A stretch of 17,657 nucleotides of DNA from Calditrichaceae bacterium. GTDB taxonomy: Bacteria; Calditrichota; Calditrichia; Calditrichales; JBFXGD01. The notes below the pieces were generated by a model, which was not told where the DNA came from, ran no database searches, and was given only the letters and a program-made list of their open reading frames with translations. The translations under genes were made by a program, and so were the position numbers. The stretch covers positions 1 through 17,657 of the forward strand of contig JBFXGD010000062.1 in the NCBI GenBank assembly GCA_050178385.1. Reading direction: 5' to 3'. Shown here piece after piece: positions 8,102-13,861 of the stretch; within the stretch, counting starts at the first letter, position 1; every line of letters starts with the position of its first letter.

Positions 8102-9539
8102 CTTGAATTTGCCGGATATACCCGATAGCTTTCTCTAATCTTCTTAACACCTTATTTTTCCCAAGAATATATACCAGTTCAAATATTCCGGGACTGACTG
8201 TTTTACCCGTCAGGGCTAATCGTAACGGGTGTATAATTTTTGCGGCTGAAATATTATTCTCATCCGCTAAATTACGAATAAAATTTTCAGGTTCAATCGT
8301 GTTCTCATATACCGTGGACTCCGATTCAGCAAGCTCCCTGTTTAAAGACATCATCAATTCCAGGACACCATCCTTCAGAAAATGTTTCCGCACACCCTTT
8401 TCATCAAATTCCTTTGGATCTTCAAAATACAGACAAAGGGAATCCATTAGCTCTGATATGGTTCGCACCCGGTCTTTTTGCAGCTCTACCAGCAAATCAA
8501 ATCGCTCTTTATCGGATCCGGGGATGGCGATATCCGCTTTTTTCAGCCTCCGTTCTACTTCCGGCAGCACTTCCGTGACGGACATATTTGACAAATATTT
8601 ACCGTTCATCCAGTACAGCTTAGTTATATCAAACACAGCGGAACGTTTATTAATTCTCTCTTCGTCAAATCTTTTGATTAATTCATCTCTGGTCATAATT
8701 TCTGTGTCATCACCGGGTGACCATCCAAGCAGACAAAGAAAATTAAATAAAGACTCCGCGAAAATACCGTCTTTTTTGAATTCTTCAACGGAAGTGGCGC
8801 CGTGTCTTTTTGATAATCGCACCTTGTCCGGCCCCAGAATTAGCGGAACGTGACCAAATTCTGGAATTTCCCACCCCATTGATTTATATAACAAAATCTG
8901 CTTTGGGGTATTTGAGAGATGATCGTCACCCCGCAGCACTTTGGTGACCCCCATATCATGATCATCTACGACTACCGCCAGCTGATATACGGGAGTACCA
9001 TCCGATCGAAGGATAATAAAGTCATCAATTGTCTCATTTTGGACCCTGTTTTCACCATGAACCAGGTCGCTAAAAACCACTTCTCCGGCGGGGATTTTAA
9101 GTCTGACCGAATATGGCTCCCCCGCCTCAAGTTTAGTTTGAATTTCTTTTTCGGACAGATTCCGGCACGCTCCGTCATAACGGTAAATTTGTTTCTCTTT
9201 TTGCGCCAGTGACCGCTTTCCATCAAGGACATTTTTACTGCAGAAACAACGATAGGCATGGCCTTTTGCTACTAATTCATCAACAACTTCTTTGTGTCTT
9301 TCCTCCCGATGGCTTTGGTATTGGACCTCATCATCCCAGTCAATTCCGAGCCATTTGAGACTATCCAGTATTTGCTGTATTGATTCATCTGTAGAGCGTT
9401 CCCGGTCTGTATCTTCAATCCGCAGTAAAAATTTACCGCCTGATTTTCTTGCCGAAAGCCAGTTAAAAATAGCCGTCCTCGCCCCGCCCACGTGTAAGTA
9501 ACCTGTAGGGCTTGGAGCAAAACGTAATACCTGATTCAA
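8094..9539 (-). CDS. gltX: Glutamate--tRNA ligase
   Basis: RFAPSPTGYLHVGG (HIGH), LLRIEDTD, CFC...YDGAC zinc-site region, RGDDHL, LSKR (KMSKS) and PLRLALTG anticodon domain. TTG start with GGAG RBS. Confidence 0.96.
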   Translation of the reverse strand: MNQVLRFAPSPTGYLHVGGARTAIFNWLSARKSGGKFLLRIEDTDRERSTDESIQQILDSLKWLGIDWDDEVQYQSHREERHKEVVDELVAKGHAYRCFCSKNVLDGKRSLAQKEKQIYRYDGACRNLSEKEIQTKLEAGEPYSVRLKIPAGEVVFSDLVHGENRVQNETIDDFIILRSDGTPVYQLAVVVDDHDMGVTKVLRGDDHLSNTPKQILLYKSMGWEIPEFGHVPLILGPDKVRLSKRHGATSVEEFKKDGIFAESLFNFLCLLGWSPGDDTEIMTRDELIKRFDEERINKRSAVFDITKLYWMNGKYLSNMSVTEVLPEVERRLKKADIAIPGSDKERFDLLVELQKDRVRTISELMDSLCLYFEDPKEFDEKGVRKHFLKDGVLELMMSLNRELAESESTVYENTIEPENFIRNLADENNISAAKIIHPLRLALTGKTVSPGIFELVYILGKNKVLRRLEKAIGYIRQIQDE

Positions 9540-9635
9540 TTCTCACTCCATTTCTGAAATTTGCAAAAATTCACTTCCAAATTTTGATTATTAAACTACT
9601 ATTTTAATTTAGTTTAGTTTTGTTTTCAAGGCAAG

Positions 9636-9650
9636 TGATTTGACAAATCA
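9636..9650. promoter_or_regulatory. Candidate operator (7-1-7 palindrome) containing a TTGACA hexamer in the divergent gltX/MFS intergenic region
   Basis: TGATTTG-A-CAAATCA is a perfect inverted repeat, with TTGACA at 9640-9645. No well-spaced -10 element was found. Confidence 0.3.
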
Positions 9651-9756
9651 GATAATCCGGGCTTTCTCCGAAAAAATGAAATTTATTATTTTTAATTTTA
9701 TAAATACCCGCGGGTTTAATAAATTGTACATCCAGAATATCAAGAAAGTATAATAA

Positions 9757-11025
9757 ATGCAGATCATGCCTGTATCATTGCAATACTACAAATTTTGCGC
9801 TTATGGTTTTCTAAAAAATCTGCGTTTTTTTGATGTTTTCTTTCTGCTCTTTCTGCGTGAATCCGGGATAAGCTTTCTTCAGATAGGAACGCTCTATTCC
9901 ATTCGTCAGATTACCATCAATATTTTTGAAATCCCCTCCGGAATTGCGGCGGACGCGTTCGGCAGAAAAAGCGCTCTGATGTTTTCAATGTTTTCCTACA
10001 TCATCTCCTTCGCGATTTTTTATCTCGCGGATAATTTCGGATTATACGCCTTTGCAATGATTGCCTTTGGTATCGGCGAAGCCTTTCGCACCGGAACGCA
10101 CAAGGCGATGATTTTGGATTATCTTAAACAAAATAATCTGCTGCAGTTCAAAACCCGTTATTACGGCAGTACCCGCTCATGGTCGCAAATCGGATCGGCG
10201 CTCAGTTCGCTTTCCGCGATGGTGATTGTTTTTCTGACCGGCAATTACCGGGAAGTTTTCCTGATCACCACCATACCCTATCTGCTTGATCTGATCCTCA
10301 TCGGCACATACCCTTCTTCTTTAAATAAACGTCCAAATAAGGATGCGGGTCAGTCGATTGTCCCTTCACTCAGGAAGGAAGTCTTAGCCATTTGGCGGTC
10401 ATTTTTGGAAATTTTTAAATCCGCGAGCTCAATGCGGGCGATTTTCAGCACATCAGCCTATATTTCACTGTTCAAAAGCACAAAAGATTACATTCAGCCG
10501 GTCCTGGAAACCATGGCGCTTACCTTACCTCTTCTTGTGGCGTTTGAAGACCAAAAAAGATCGGCGATCGTCATCGGGGTCACCTATTTCCTGATTTTTC
10601 TCATGACATCATTTGCCGCCCGCAACGCCTGGAAACTGGAAGCGCGATTCAAAAATCTGCCGCTCTCCATTGATGTCGCCTATCTGATAGGGGTGACAGG
10701 CATCGGCATATCAGGTATTTTATTGAAGCTGGAGTATCCAATCCTCGCGGTTATCGCCTTTATCAGTCTTTATCTGATACAGAATATCCGCCGGCCTCTC
10801 GCGGTGAGTTACCTGAGCGAACTGATTTCACAGGATGTGATGGCTTCCGGATTGTCCGTTGAATCACAGATGGAGACTTTGCTTGTCGCTGTTTTTGCCC
10901 CGGTCCTGGGTCTGGTGATTGATTACGCGGGGATAGGGGGCGGATTGATGTTCGCGGGTTTCAGTTTTCTGCTTATGTATCCCTTTCTCCGTCTTTCCCG
11001 GGGCGCCGAATCCGATAAATCATGA
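9757..11025 (+). CDS. Major facilitator superfamily transporter
   Basis: 422 aa with many hydrophobic segments and MFS motif A-like EIPSGIAADAFGRK, plus GIGEAFRTGT. Substrate unknown. Confidence 0.9.
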   Translation: MQIMPVSLQYYKFCAYGFLKNLRFFDVFFLLFLRESGISFLQIGTLYSIRQITINIFEIPSGIAADAFGRKSALMFSMFSYIISFAIFYLADNFGLYAFAMIAFGIGEAFRTGTHKAMILDYLKQNNLLQFKTRYYGSTRSWSQIGSALSSLSAMVIVFLTGNYREVFLITTIPYLLDLILIGTYPSSLNKRPNKDAGQSIVPSLRKEVLAIWRSFLEIFKSASSMRAIFSTSAYISLFKSTKDYIQPVLETMALTLPLLVAFEDQKRSAIVIGVTYFLIFLMTSFAARNAWKLEARFKNLPLSIDVAYLIGVTGIGISGILLKLEYPILAVIAFISLYLIQNIRRPLAVSYLSELISQDVMASGLSVESQMETLLVAVFAPVLGLVIDYAGIGGGLMFAGFSFLLMYPFLRLSRGAESDKS

Positions 11026-11065
11026 TCATCCTGTCCGGAGGAATGGGTTAAAATGTCTTCTTGAA

Positions 11066-11829
11066 ACTATTTTTCTACTAAGGTTAACAAAATATAAAAT
11101 AAGGTTTTTTTCAGGTTGGCTGATCGATTATTAAACCTTATTTTTGTCTTCCAAACCTTAGTAGAAATACAGAACATAACTCAATCTAAATCTTATACAT
11201 TATTAATAAAACAAATAGGTTAACAAAATATAAAATAAGGTTTTTTTCAGGTTGGCTGATCGATTATTAAACCTTATTTCTGTCTTCCAAACCTTAGTAG
11301 AAAAACAAAACACAACTCAATCTAAATCTTATACATTATTATTAAAACAAACCGGAGAAATAAAATTTGAACTCAAAATCAAAACATTTTAAATAAGGTA
11401 TAACATTATTGGGATACTATTTTTCTACTAAGGTTAACAAAATATAAAATAAGGTTTTCTTCAGGTTGGCTGATCGATTATTAAACCTTATTTTTGTCTT
11501 CCAAACCTTAGTAGAAATACAGAACATAACTCAATCTAAATCTTATACATTATTAATAAAACAAATAGGTTAACAAAAAATAAAATAAGGTTTTTCAGGA
11601 TGGCTGATCGATTATTAAACCTTATTTCTGTCTTCCAAAACCTTAGTAGAAATACAGAACATAAATCAATCTAAATCTTATACATCATTAATAAAACAAA
11701 TAGGTTAACAAAAAATAAAATAAGGTTTTTTTCAGGTTGGCTGATCGATTATTAAACCTTATTTCTGTCGTCCCAAGCCTTAGTAGAAAAACAAAACACA
11801 ACTCAATCTAAATCTTATACATTATTAAT
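11066..11829 (+). repeat. Upstream array: five direct copies of a nested palindromic unit plus AT-rich tail
   Basis: The anchor AGGTTAACAAAA occurs at 11081, 11217, 11431, 11567 and 11702 (periods 136, 214, 136, 135). Core: AATAAGGTTT..TCAG-GTTGG-CTGA-TCGATTATT-AAACCTTATT..TGTCTTCCAAACCTTAGTAGAAA. Tail: ..CTCAATCTAAATCTTATACATTATT. Confidence 0.97.
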
Positions 11830-11848
11830 GGAAAGGTAAATAAAGAAA

Positions 11849-12304
11849 ATGAAAATCGAATACAACAATCTTTATACACACTTTGTGTTTACCACCTATC
11901 AACGTCAACCGATCATTCCGGAACATAACCGAATTAGAATAGAAAAATATATTACCGGAATTATAAATAATAATGATTCGAAATTATATGCTATTTACGC
12001 TAATCCGGATCATGTCCATTTTTTAGTATCACGAAGTCCTGCAATTTCTGAAGAAAAATTAGCAACAACTGTATCTGATAGCAGCCTGCGTTTTATTAAT
12101 GAAAATAAACTTGCCGGAAATAATTTTGCATGGCAAAATACTGCATCGGCTTTTTCTGTATCCAAATCTGATGTTGATAAAATATGCAAATATATTTTGA
12201 ATCAACCAATACACCATAAAAAAGTGTCATTTGATGAAGAATATGAAAAATTTATAAAATTTCATCAAACCAATTTACAGAAAATACGAAACAAGGATAA
12301 ATGA
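11849..12304 (+). CDS. tnpA: IS200/IS605-family Y1 (HUH) transposase, TnpA/RAYT-like
   Basis: 151 aa with N-terminal YTHFVFTT..R, HUH motif NPDHVHFLV, FAWQ...AFSVS and catalytic-Tyr helix KYILNQPIHH. Purine-rich GGAAAGG lies upstream. Confidence 0.88.
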   Translation: MKIEYNNLYTHFVFTTYQRQPIIPEHNRIRIEKYITGIINNNDSKLYAIYANPDHVHFLVSRSPAISEEKLATTVSDSSLRFINENKLAGNNFAWQNTASAFSVSKSDVDKICKYILNQPIHHKKVSFDEEYEKFIKFHQTNLQKIRNKDK

Positions 12305-12349
12305 TTGAAACATAAAATAATAATGTCAATAACTACATGAATAAATCTA

Positions 12350-12677
12350 TCTACTAAGGTTTACAAAAAATAAAATAAGGTTTATTCAGGATAGCTGATC
12401 GATTATTGAATCATATTTTTGTCTTCCAAAACCTTAGTAGAAATACAGAACATAACTCAATCTAAATCTTATACAGTATTAAAAATACAAACCGGAAAAA
12501 TAAAATTTAAACTCAAAATCAAAACATTTTAAATAAGGTATAACATTATTGGGATACTATTTTTCTACTAAGGTTTACAAAAAATAAAATAAGGTTTATT
12601 CAGGATGGCTGATCGATTATTGAATCATATTTTTGTCTTCCAAAACCTTAGTAGAAAAACAAAACACAACTCAATCT
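12350..12677 (+). repeat. Downstream array: two more direct copies of the palindromic unit
   Basis: Anchor AGGTTTACAAAA at 12357 and 12571 (period 214). Both copies have full CTACTAAGGTTT...AAACCTTAGTAG arms and are joined by the same 79-nt linker seen at 11352-11430. Confidence 0.97.
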
Positions 12678-12824
12678 TAACCTTATTACTTTATGTCAGG
12701 CAGAATTTTAACTTCCCAAATTTTGGCTAAAAATTTTTACTTATTTTCAAAAACTCCCATTTATTCCTTCATCGCGAGTCAGTATGATTGACAATGCATG
12801 CCCGCTACTCCAAACTCTTAACTT

Positions 12825-12858
12825 TTCCTACTTCCTACTTCCTACTTCTTACTTTTAC
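12825..12858. repeat. Short heptamer tandem repeat (TTCCTAC)n
   Basis: TTCCTAC x3 (12825-12845), followed by the degenerate copies TTCTTAC and TTTTAC. Confidence 0.8.
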
Positions 12859-12927
12859 TAGGCGGGCTTCACAATTTCCCAATCAATTTTTGTATTAAAT
12901 TAACTTTCAAGGAAAATAGTTTTTTGA

Positions 12928-13716
12928 TCATAAAAGCTTTTGCTGTATTGTATCAAGAAGCGATATCATCTGGCGGGCATTTTTGATTGCCTTACCGTTG
13001 GGGTGATTATTAAAGTAAATATATGTTTTGTACGTTTTTTTCATCAGATTACTGATGTGAATCAGCCATTCCTTTAGTTCTTCTTCCTTATATTCATAAT
13101 CATACCGCGCCGATCCCTGACCGCTCCACCAGCTGTCTTCATTACGGCCATGAAACCGGATATACCCTGTCTCCGTCGTCGCGATTTCCTGACCGGGAAT
13201 CAAACCTTCCAGCGCCGGTTCATCAACGTTGACGTAACCGATGCCATGATCGTGCAAAAAGGGTACGATTTGCGGCTTGTTCCATGATGAATTCCTGAAC
13301 TCCGCGAATAATGGTAAATTTCCCGCGTATTTTCTTGTTTCTATCAGATATTTTCTATTGATTTCATTGTTTTTGAACGAATACGGAAATTGAGCCAGAA
13401 ACCCGCGGAATTTGCCTGACTCGATCAGCGGCTGGACGGCATCGGTCAGTTTTTTAAACGCGGATTCATTTTCCAGTCTGCGATGGGTCGTTTCCTGATT
13501 GGTTTTGACAATAAATTCAAACTGTTTAGGCGTTTTTTCGGCCATTCTGCTGAATACGGAAACGGATGGAATCGTATAATATGTCGCGTTTATTTCGACC
13601 GTACCAAAATGCCGCGTATAATATTCAAGCATGTCTTTTTTTTGCATTCCATCCGGATAAAAGACTCCGCGCCAGTCATCATAACTGTAACCGGATGTAC
13701 CGATTTGAATCTTCAT
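12928..13716 (-). CDS. DUF72 (YecE-like) domain protein
   Basis: IGTSGYSYDDWRGVFYP, VEINATYY, LAQFPYSF, EFRNSSW, YIRFHGRN, RYDYEY and YFNNH..G.AIKNA motifs. Start placed at ATG 13716, downstream of GGAGG. Confidence 0.92.
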   Translation of the reverse strand: MKIQIGTSGYSYDDWRGVFYPDGMQKKDMLEYYTRHFGTVEINATYYTIPSVSVFSRMAEKTPKQFEFIVKTNQETTHRRLENESAFKKLTDAVQPLIESGKFRGFLAQFPYSFKNNEINRKYLIETRKYAGNLPLFAEFRNSSWNKPQIVPFLHDHGIGYVNVDEPALEGLIPGQEIATTETGYIRFHGRNEDSWWSGQGSARYDYEYKEEELKEWLIHISNLMKKTYKTYIYFNNHPNGKAIKNARQMISLLDTIQQKLL

Positions 13717-13861
13717 ATTTTTGGATAACCCTCCGCCTTTTCCAAGACGATTTCCCGGAAACCATAATTTGATCATTCAAATTTACTTGTAAATAGCGCT
13801 GATCACGATTATTTTTATCAACTTAAATACCTCTGTCATAAAAGGAAAGAATATTTTGCAA

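Follow-up and report, generated by a model that had tools for sequence, protein, structure and literature searches.

In the portions available of the published work surveyed, every studied Y1 enzyme of the IS200/IS605 or REP-associated type recognizes a small DNA hairpin. The TnpA-REP enzyme of E. coli cuts at the consensus CC^T and is reported to be inactive on double-stranded DNA (PMC3333891), and its helix alphaC enters that hairpin's minor groove (PMC3479197). In the classification of Quentin et al. 2018, Table 1 lists TnpA-Y1 subclass 1.2 with the entry 'REP: no' (PMC6006769). The locus described here encodes a protein with the signatures of subclass 1.2, and it fits neither the ends of IS200 nor canonical REPs, as the original prediction stated.

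The window, which is the whole 17,657-nucleotide stretch of DNA that was analyzed, corresponds to contig C62 of the genome G000. The assembly has a GC content of 41.8%, compared with 30% for the tnpA-Y1 gene and 25% for the repeat array. The gene (11849..12304, forward strand) is a single open reading frame for a protein of 151 amino acids, recognized by its Pfam match and motifs. The array is bordered on the left by an MFS transporter gene (9757-11025) and on the right by a DUF72 gene (12928-13776, reverse strand). No other open reading frame of at least 80 amino acids is present from the end of the MFS gene at 11025 to that of the DUF72 gene at 12928, in agreement with the claim that the locus lacks tnpB and cargo genes. 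A scan for promoters and terminators found 12 promoter-like sites, compared with 11.1 expected, and no terminators.

The protein belongs to the HUH/Y1 TnpA superfamily, with the HuH motif, a single catalytic tyrosine, and the Y1_Tnp fold. The DHVH motif is formed by residues 54-57 (His55 and His57) and the tyrosine is Tyr115. Y1_Tnp (PF01797) is the sole Pfam domain, with a score of 66.8 bits (cut-off 23). The three catalytic residues are unvarying across 30 aligned homologues, and EHVH replaces DHVH in most homologues. The protein scores 54.6 bits with the NCBIfam IS200 model NF033573 (cut-off 55) and 27.4 bits with the RAYT profile NF047646, which is below the cut-off of 80. The Y---NP motif of RAYTs is absent from the protein, which has YILNQ. 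The motifs DHVH, WQ, and YILNQPIHH, together with the length of 151 amino acids, are signatures of subclass 1.2, and the protein appears to fit this subclass by its signatures, short length, and low copy number. A homologue search identified at least 4,413 relatives. In a quick version of a tree of 73 proteins, with 11 intended rows omitted for want of a parsed open reading frame, 34 close relatives form one group with a long stem (SH-aLRT 100). The monophyly of this group is partly by construction and the grouping is descriptive, because the box-type rows were picked by similarity. The group lies beside other Y---Q--HH proteins (SH-aLRT 87) and apart from class 2 (SH-aLRT 99), and the tree placement proposed as a check of the original prediction puts the protein in class 1.

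The predicted structure is an ordinary Y1 fold without an added DNA-binding domain. It is nearest to the TnpA proteins of ISDra2 and IS608, with a Foldseek E-value of 4e-8 to ISDra2 TnpA. The homodimer model has a score of 0.67, compared with 0.00 for the best control, where 20 of 30 solved homodimers attain the score mark, as does 1 of 23 single chains; the contacts agree to at least 95% and the pLDDT is at least 81. The score may reflect likeness to the solved dimers of IS608 and ISDra2. The median dN/dS of the gene, 0.06 for 519 non-independent pairs, indicates that it is under purifying selection. The close-clade gene is single-copy in the genome of the window and in 35 of 39 genomes, and no close homologue was found in the plasmids, phages, and viral contigs searched (best plasmid match 43.6%, best phage match 25.4%, no viral match). 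These comparisons show a conserved, low-copy protein that has kept its catalytic residues. The genome of the window has at least three further Y1 genes, L102-L104 on contigs C240, C284, and C243, which score higher on the RAYT model.

The repeat array is composed of seven units, five upstream and two downstream of the gene, with start-to-start distances of 136, 214, 135, 137, 654, and 214 nt and a mean column identity of 88% across the aligned units. The true repeating element is a ~75-nt module formed by an outer box, a core box, and an inner box: AACCTTATT, ~12 nt, AACCTTAGTAG, ~23 nt, and AACCTTATT(ACCTTATT). Since the window contains seven rightward and four leftward core boxes, the array is one of alternating inverted modules, with the gene between an inward-pointing pair. 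The original description of the units as direct repeats conceals this anatomy.

Unit 1 (11075..11204) is a long palindrome, in which a leftward module remnant (core box 11075-11085, outer box 11098) and a rightward module stand back to back, the latter having its outer box at 11134, its core box at 11154-11164, and a degenerate inner box at 11189. Unit 2 (11217..11340) is a rightward module (core box 11290-11300) that forms no long stem, the core box of its leftward partner being deleted. It is followed by a linker with the inner box (11392) of the next leftward module (11341..11424), which is the equivalent of the spot held by the gene further on. Unit 3 (11425..11554) is a complete back-to-back pair with a leftward core box at 11425-11435 and a rightward one at 11504-11514, and is 99% alike to unit 1. 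In unit 4 (11567..11690), a rightward module with its core box at 11639-11649, the left arm is deleted. Unit 5 (11702..11826) is a rightward module (core box 11776-11786 with one mismatch, inner box 11811) and forms the left end of the gene cassette. The right end is the leftward module of unit 6 (12320..12480; core box 12351-12361); the rightward module to which it stands back to back has its core box at 12430-12440. A second linker with an inner box at 12532 (12481..12564), 96% like 11344-11416, separates unit 6 from unit 7 (12565..12687), which is a complete back-to-back pair with core boxes at 12565-12575 and 12644-12654 and an inner box at 12679.

Long palindromes are formed by units 1, 3, 6, and 7 only, each consisting of two inverted copies of the ~75-nt module. 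When folded as DNA, units 1, 6, and 7 have z-scores of -4.1 to -6.2, with none of 200 shuffles as good and both strands alike, whereas the fold of unit 2 is no better than that of shuffled sequences (z -0.8). The prediction of five ~95-nt hairpin units upstream and two downstream was correct in the unit counts, but not in the hairpins, as the left CTAC arm is absent from units 2, 4, and 5. Contigs from two sequencing runs of different studies bridge the junctions between the MFS gene and unit 1 and between the units and the gene (X1: 10677-11095 and 11800-12379; X2: 10913-11133, 11658-11822, and 12206-12380). The bridging pieces reach the junctions and none extends across the full array, the copy number of which is given as assembled. 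A run of 4.3 TTCCTAC heptamers at 12825-12854, with very high depth in one metagenome run, is a separate common repeat.

The module accompanies the gene in other organisms. The layout 5' AACCTTATT, ~12 nt, AACCTTAGTAG, ~23 nt, AACCTTATTACCTTATT, and start codon, with the reverse complement downstream, was found at 80 genomic loci with 68-78% identity, mostly from Bacteroidota, but also from Ignavibacteria, Calditrichia, KSB1, and a few other groups. The outer box is absent from many Chitinophagaceae loci. The flanks of homologues, proposed as a check, bore out the association: an inward core box is present on at least one side of the gene at 70 and on both sides at 47 of the 78 genomic loci with enough flank (from 84 loci, one of which is counted twice). 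The corresponding numbers are 52 and 36 for the 69 of 79 metagenomic loci with flanks, a few of which are the same elements as genomic loci. Just 8 of 291 core-box matches lie more than 1.5 kb from the gene. At three loci (L011, L082, and L083) the upstream module is directed away from the gene.

Across phyla, each position of the core box is 78-99% invariant, and CC^T is present in every box. The spacer of the core box is conserved in length (19-32 nt, mode 22-24 nt), but not in sequence: left and right spacers within an element (0.33) are no more alike than those between genomes (0.32; 43 pairs). The box starts are ~21 and ~34 nt apart. Of the 113 modules, the first 70 were folded individually and none gave z<-2 on either strand, and the gap between inverted back-to-back modules varies from 7 to ~90 nt. 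Judging from these loci, a long palindrome requires two modules to meet in inverted orientation, and what is conserved is a non-folding box module. The predicted partnership of an HUH nuclease with its own class of long palindromes is upheld as far as the gene has its own repeats at homologous loci and dispersed elsewhere, but the class is that of the box module rather than of a palindrome. Whole cassettes are predicted to fold as a panhandle, with the core boxes paired at P>0.5 in 23 of 25 cases and at 0.86 in the window, although the prediction assumes equilibrium, was made on stretches cut out at the boxes, and is what the inverted layout by itself would lead to. With the two core boxes paired when whole cassettes are folded, the partner module could be the source of the stems.

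The sister relatives of subclass 1.2 type, with 30-47% identity, have a different arrangement of the ends, consisting of a hairpin, 9 nt, a GTAG/ATAG-type tag, ~23 nt, and a hairpin. In 26 of 27 matches, the hairpin center precedes the tag by 16 nt. Hairpins were detected in 40 of 54 flanks of the sister lineages (1.9 expected), in contrast to 7 of 168 flanks of the box clade (3.2 expected). The box clade lacks the hairpins and shares the geometry of tag plus ~23 nt with the sister lineages. Residue 76 is a lysine in all 27 hairpin-type proteins and in all five IS200 proteins, but an alanine in 91% of 79 box-clade proteins and a serine in the protein from the window; Lys17 is likewise replaced in the box clade. 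Position 76 belongs to the helix 68-85 of the predicted structure and aligns with the lysine of KGRSSR in IS608 TnpA. On the basis of the model, the helix is probably the equivalent of alphaC of TnpA-REP. As the loss of the hairpins and the change of Lys76 coincide on one branch, they represent one event and not a correlation. Rules for guide and cleavage-site pairing in IS608 were set aside, as the hairpin-type examples did not conform to them. In one genome (G078), three hairpin-type subclass 1.2 genes, L160-L162, are identical, as are their flanks over the 200 nt inspected, which may be a larger duplication or assembly redundancy.

Modules also occur apart from the gene. The exact 11-mer of the core box is present in 24 copies in G001, 42 in G009, 38 in G011, 62 in G019, 10 in G000, and 7 in G008, and in 0-2 copies in the other related genomes (35 of the 41). 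In a set of 40 genomes selected because they carry the gene, the number of exact boxes ranges from 0 to 31, and many have 0-3. A close gene was found in G000, G001, G009, and G011, and a part of one in G034 (one box). It was not found in G019, which has the most boxes and is 85% complete, or in G008, which has seven boxes and is 99% complete. The dispersed copies often form inverted pairs 100-135 nt apart or alternating arrays, but single and same-direction modules also occur, for which pairing with a near partner is impossible. The expected dispersal was thus confirmed by tens of copies in G001, G009, G011, and G019, but not in the host genome, where one degenerate module on contig C177 and one doubtful match were found, compared with five control matches. 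Spread of the module within the genome of the window is slight.

Both the MFS and the DUF72 gene have syntenic counterparts, 85% alike, in G001, a genome of the same genus; between them lie 16 modules with a period of ~212 nt and no gene (L113, C13:77500-79150). A linker of this array matches the one at 11341..11424 in the window, the final module ends directly after GTAG (a single case), and the window segment 12690-12925 has no counterpart at this site. The gene of G001 is located on another contig and encodes a protein 74% identical to that from the window. Because the G001 interval consists of modules without a gene, either a gene-less array was present at this site in the common ancestor or the gene has since been lost. 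In a core-box exchange test on 131 modules of one genus, linkage across the core box was weaker in G019, with 35 linked and 96 unlinked pairs, compared with 115 and 26 for the inner box, the pairs being non-independent; this contrast is absent from G009 and G011, and the clustering version of the test was uninformative. An inward module pair that is single in G011 is tandemly doubled at the orthologous site of G019 (L143 and L127). At L114, L115, L118, and L123-L128, other palindromic repeats alternate with the box modules or enclose them, which gives the impression that such sites collect several families.

The reading that we favor, and hold to be somewhat probable, is that the gene and modules are partners in a REP/RAYT-like system that belongs to the IS200 side of the Y1 family and is free of hairpins, with paired boxes and with an enzyme that would be active on them. 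Comparison of the loci establishes that the gene is normally bracketed by two inward modules, and that modules are also found where the gene is absent, in inverted pairs and in arrays. The enzyme would act as an IS608-like dimer on single-stranded DNA, such as that at replication forks. Two inverted modules would pair, so that the boxes become short stems with unpaired loops of constant length (~12 and ~23 nt) between them, and these stems would take the place of the small local hairpins of the sister lineages. The enzyme would read the invariant sequence of the boxes, nick in or next to a box, each of which contains the CC^T cut by E. coli TnpA-REP, and rejoin the strands, by which module pairs would be moved and reshuffled. 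Such rejoining, or ordinary slippage, may account for local tandem growth and for units 2, 4, and 5, which are partial, and the long palindromes of the window would be by-products of back-to-back modules. The presence of a close gene in three of the four box-rich genomes (G001, G009, G011, and G019) argues for the partnership. Arguing against it are the box-rich G019 and G008, with no close gene found, and the near lack of spread in the window's own genome, as well as the many gene-bearing genomes with 0-3 boxes, the lone, same-direction, and outward modules, and the unfixed position of the gene.

The cassette might instead be an autonomous low-copy insertion sequence that comprises module, gene, and module, with the modules as inverted ends and the gene-less inward pairs as miniature deletion derivatives. 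We consider this unlikely, but it has a definite chance of being correct. The position of the gene is not conserved between relatives: the cassette of G063 fills an interval that is ~1 kb shorter in all 12 aligned relatives, and similar cassettes occupy other places in G045 and G088. Related cassettes often cease to be homologous just outside the core box. L120 contains two gene-less inward pairs (700-900 and 1510-1690), ~800 nt apart and enclosing the first 11 codons of the gene, as expected of internal deletion derivatives. The predicted IS608-like dimer and the patchy spread over several phyla are also in line with an insertion sequence. However, the gene has one copy in nearly all genomes and none in the plasmid, phage, and viral collections searched, and the relatives compared offer no clean empty site at base resolution, as presence and absence are seen but the sequences are too diverged to define the ends.

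Furthermore, a part of the movement has another cause. Outer 25-bp inverted repeats bracket the cassette in 28 of 168 loci (at both ends in 14), with 8-bp target duplications in several. They were rejected as products of the Y1 enzyme itself, as they are also found flanking ISL3/ISAon1 transposase fragments and cassettes of the hairpin type, and are absent from the window and from all 48 array loci checked. This part of cassette movement is best read as hitch-hiking on ISL3/ISAon1-type ends, and the sole near-identical pair of cassettes in one assembly (L008 and L060, 95.7%) carries them. At L063, L292, L008, L060, L258, L263, L289, L333, L335, and other loci, Y1 cassettes of both the box and the hairpin type, as well as a gene-less derivative, lie between 25-bp ISL3/ISAon1-type ends with 8-bp duplications, and the sequences indicate that the cassettes are passengers of a DDE carrier. 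In a second ISL3-ended cassette of G074 (L328:1502-2338), an unrelated 88-amino-acid open reading frame on the same strand takes the place of the central part of the Y1 gene.

A less probable alternative retains the partnership but dispenses with pairing between modules: the protein would bind the boxes as direct repeats, in an iteron-like manner, on double-stranded or unstructured single-stranded DNA, and nick at a fixed distance. The invariant boxes, with spacers free in sequence and fixed in length, the loss of the helix lysine, and the existence of lone and tandem modules speak for such binding. However, modules are mostly in inverted pairs, the Y1 fold has no added DNA-binding domain, and E. 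coli TnpA-REP does not act on double-stranded DNA (PMC3333891). It is considerably less probable still that the boxes are passive, being control sites or relics of gene ends spread and multiplied by host recombination, slippage, and other mobile elements. Gene-less arrays persist, partial units resemble simple deletions, modules of G009, G011, and G019 are interleaved with other palindromic repeats, and ISL3-type carriers do move cassettes; however, there are tens of copies on many contigs, none of the 48 array loci has ISL3-type ends, the core box is largely invariant across phyla, and the catalytic residues are invariant. An array of structured RNAs partnered with a nuclease, the other alternative of the original prediction, or an assembly artefact can hardly account for the locus: full units fold well as RNA (plus strand, z -5.7 for unit 1 and -2.8 for unit 6) and no read spans the whole array, but both DNA strands fold about equally, three of seven units have no stem, modules occur in both orientations, none of 12 consensus pairs in ten aligned back-to-back pairs is compensatory, all pairs being invariant boxes, no relevant Rfam match was found in window positions 9500-13000 or at 12 related loci, the units carry diagnostic differences, the junctions are bridged in two studies, and a related array is present in G001.

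Replication-initiator HUH proteins read iterons. By analogy, the box clade could have given up hairpin recognition to read spaced direct-repeat boxes (AACCTTA) by sequence and cut at a fixed distance, which we regard as doubtful. If this were true, the clade would contain the first IS200/RAYT-type enzyme with a substrate set by boxes and their spacing instead of a local stem-loop, and the change of lysine to alanine in the hairpin-binding helix would mark the switch. In this large and well-sampled clade, the spacing of the sister lineages is kept, the hairpins are swapped for boxes, and the matching helix is changed. The box and hairpin types constitute a natural pair for testing substrate choice and the origin of repeat families. 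Should the enzyme prove to cut and join DNA at short, defined boxes, it would be a 150-amino-acid candidate for single-strand DNA joining tools.

The closest described proteins are those of TnpA-Y1 subclass 1.2, which share HuH, WQ, and Y---Q--HH, a length of ~150 amino acids, low copy number, and a Bacteroidetes-rich distribution with the protein described here; in the part of the paper available, no REP is listed for them (PMC6006769), whereas the present clade has partner repeats in the form of hairpin-free boxes. The published view of subclass 1.2 as lacking partner repeats is thereby corrected, and we read the entry as an oversight of description and not as an exclusion of this protein. 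The IS200 'Group 3' of Bertels et al. 2017 is similar in having an IS200-side protein, neither duplicates nor plasmid copies, and abundant flanking 16-mers, the nature of which the available text does not describe (PMC5581495), and it may equal subclass 1.2 or take in this clade. IS200/IS605 elements such as IS608 and ISDra2 provide the closest solved folds, and the dimer interface is predicted in equivalent strands; in contrast to them, the locus has no subterminal hairpins, no tnpB, no multicopy identical elements, no close homologue in the plasmids searched, and symmetrical inverted ends.

The E. coli REPtron, with its BIMEs, resembles the locus in its single gene among alternating inverted units with linkers, gene-less arrays, GTAG tag, and CC^T. 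However, according to the accessible parts of the reports, GTAG of the E. coli REP is at the 5' foot of the hairpin, whereas here it is followed by ~23 unpaired variable nt, and TnpA-REP is a monomer, whereas the window protein is of class 1 (Y---Q) and a predicted dimer (PMC3333891, PMC3479197, PMC8266576). A further difference is that the position of the window-type gene shifts between relatives. In the TIRtrons described by Di Nocera et al. 2013, a Y1 gene is likewise located between inverted repeats that form dimers and clusters elsewhere. As far as the portion consulted describes them, TIRYTs are mostly of subclass 2.1 and are marked by an HTH at the C-terminus and a GGGGWSAS motif, neither of which is present here, and the window-type ends share boxes only, with unrelated spacers and no continuous repeat (PMC3733652). 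The RAYT-like trait of cognate repeats that flank the gene and are dispersed without it is present, although weak in the window's own genome. The suggestion that the system is undescribed does not extend to the protein, which carries the catalogued subclass 1.2 signatures, but stands for the boxes: no published description of them was found in the mainly open-access literature searched, and the box strings are absent from the available supplement text of Quentin et al. 2018 (PMC6006769). The best reading of these comparisons is that hairpin-free box repeats at a subclass 1.2 gene are new, and that the kind of system to which they would belong, REP/RAYT-like, is already known.
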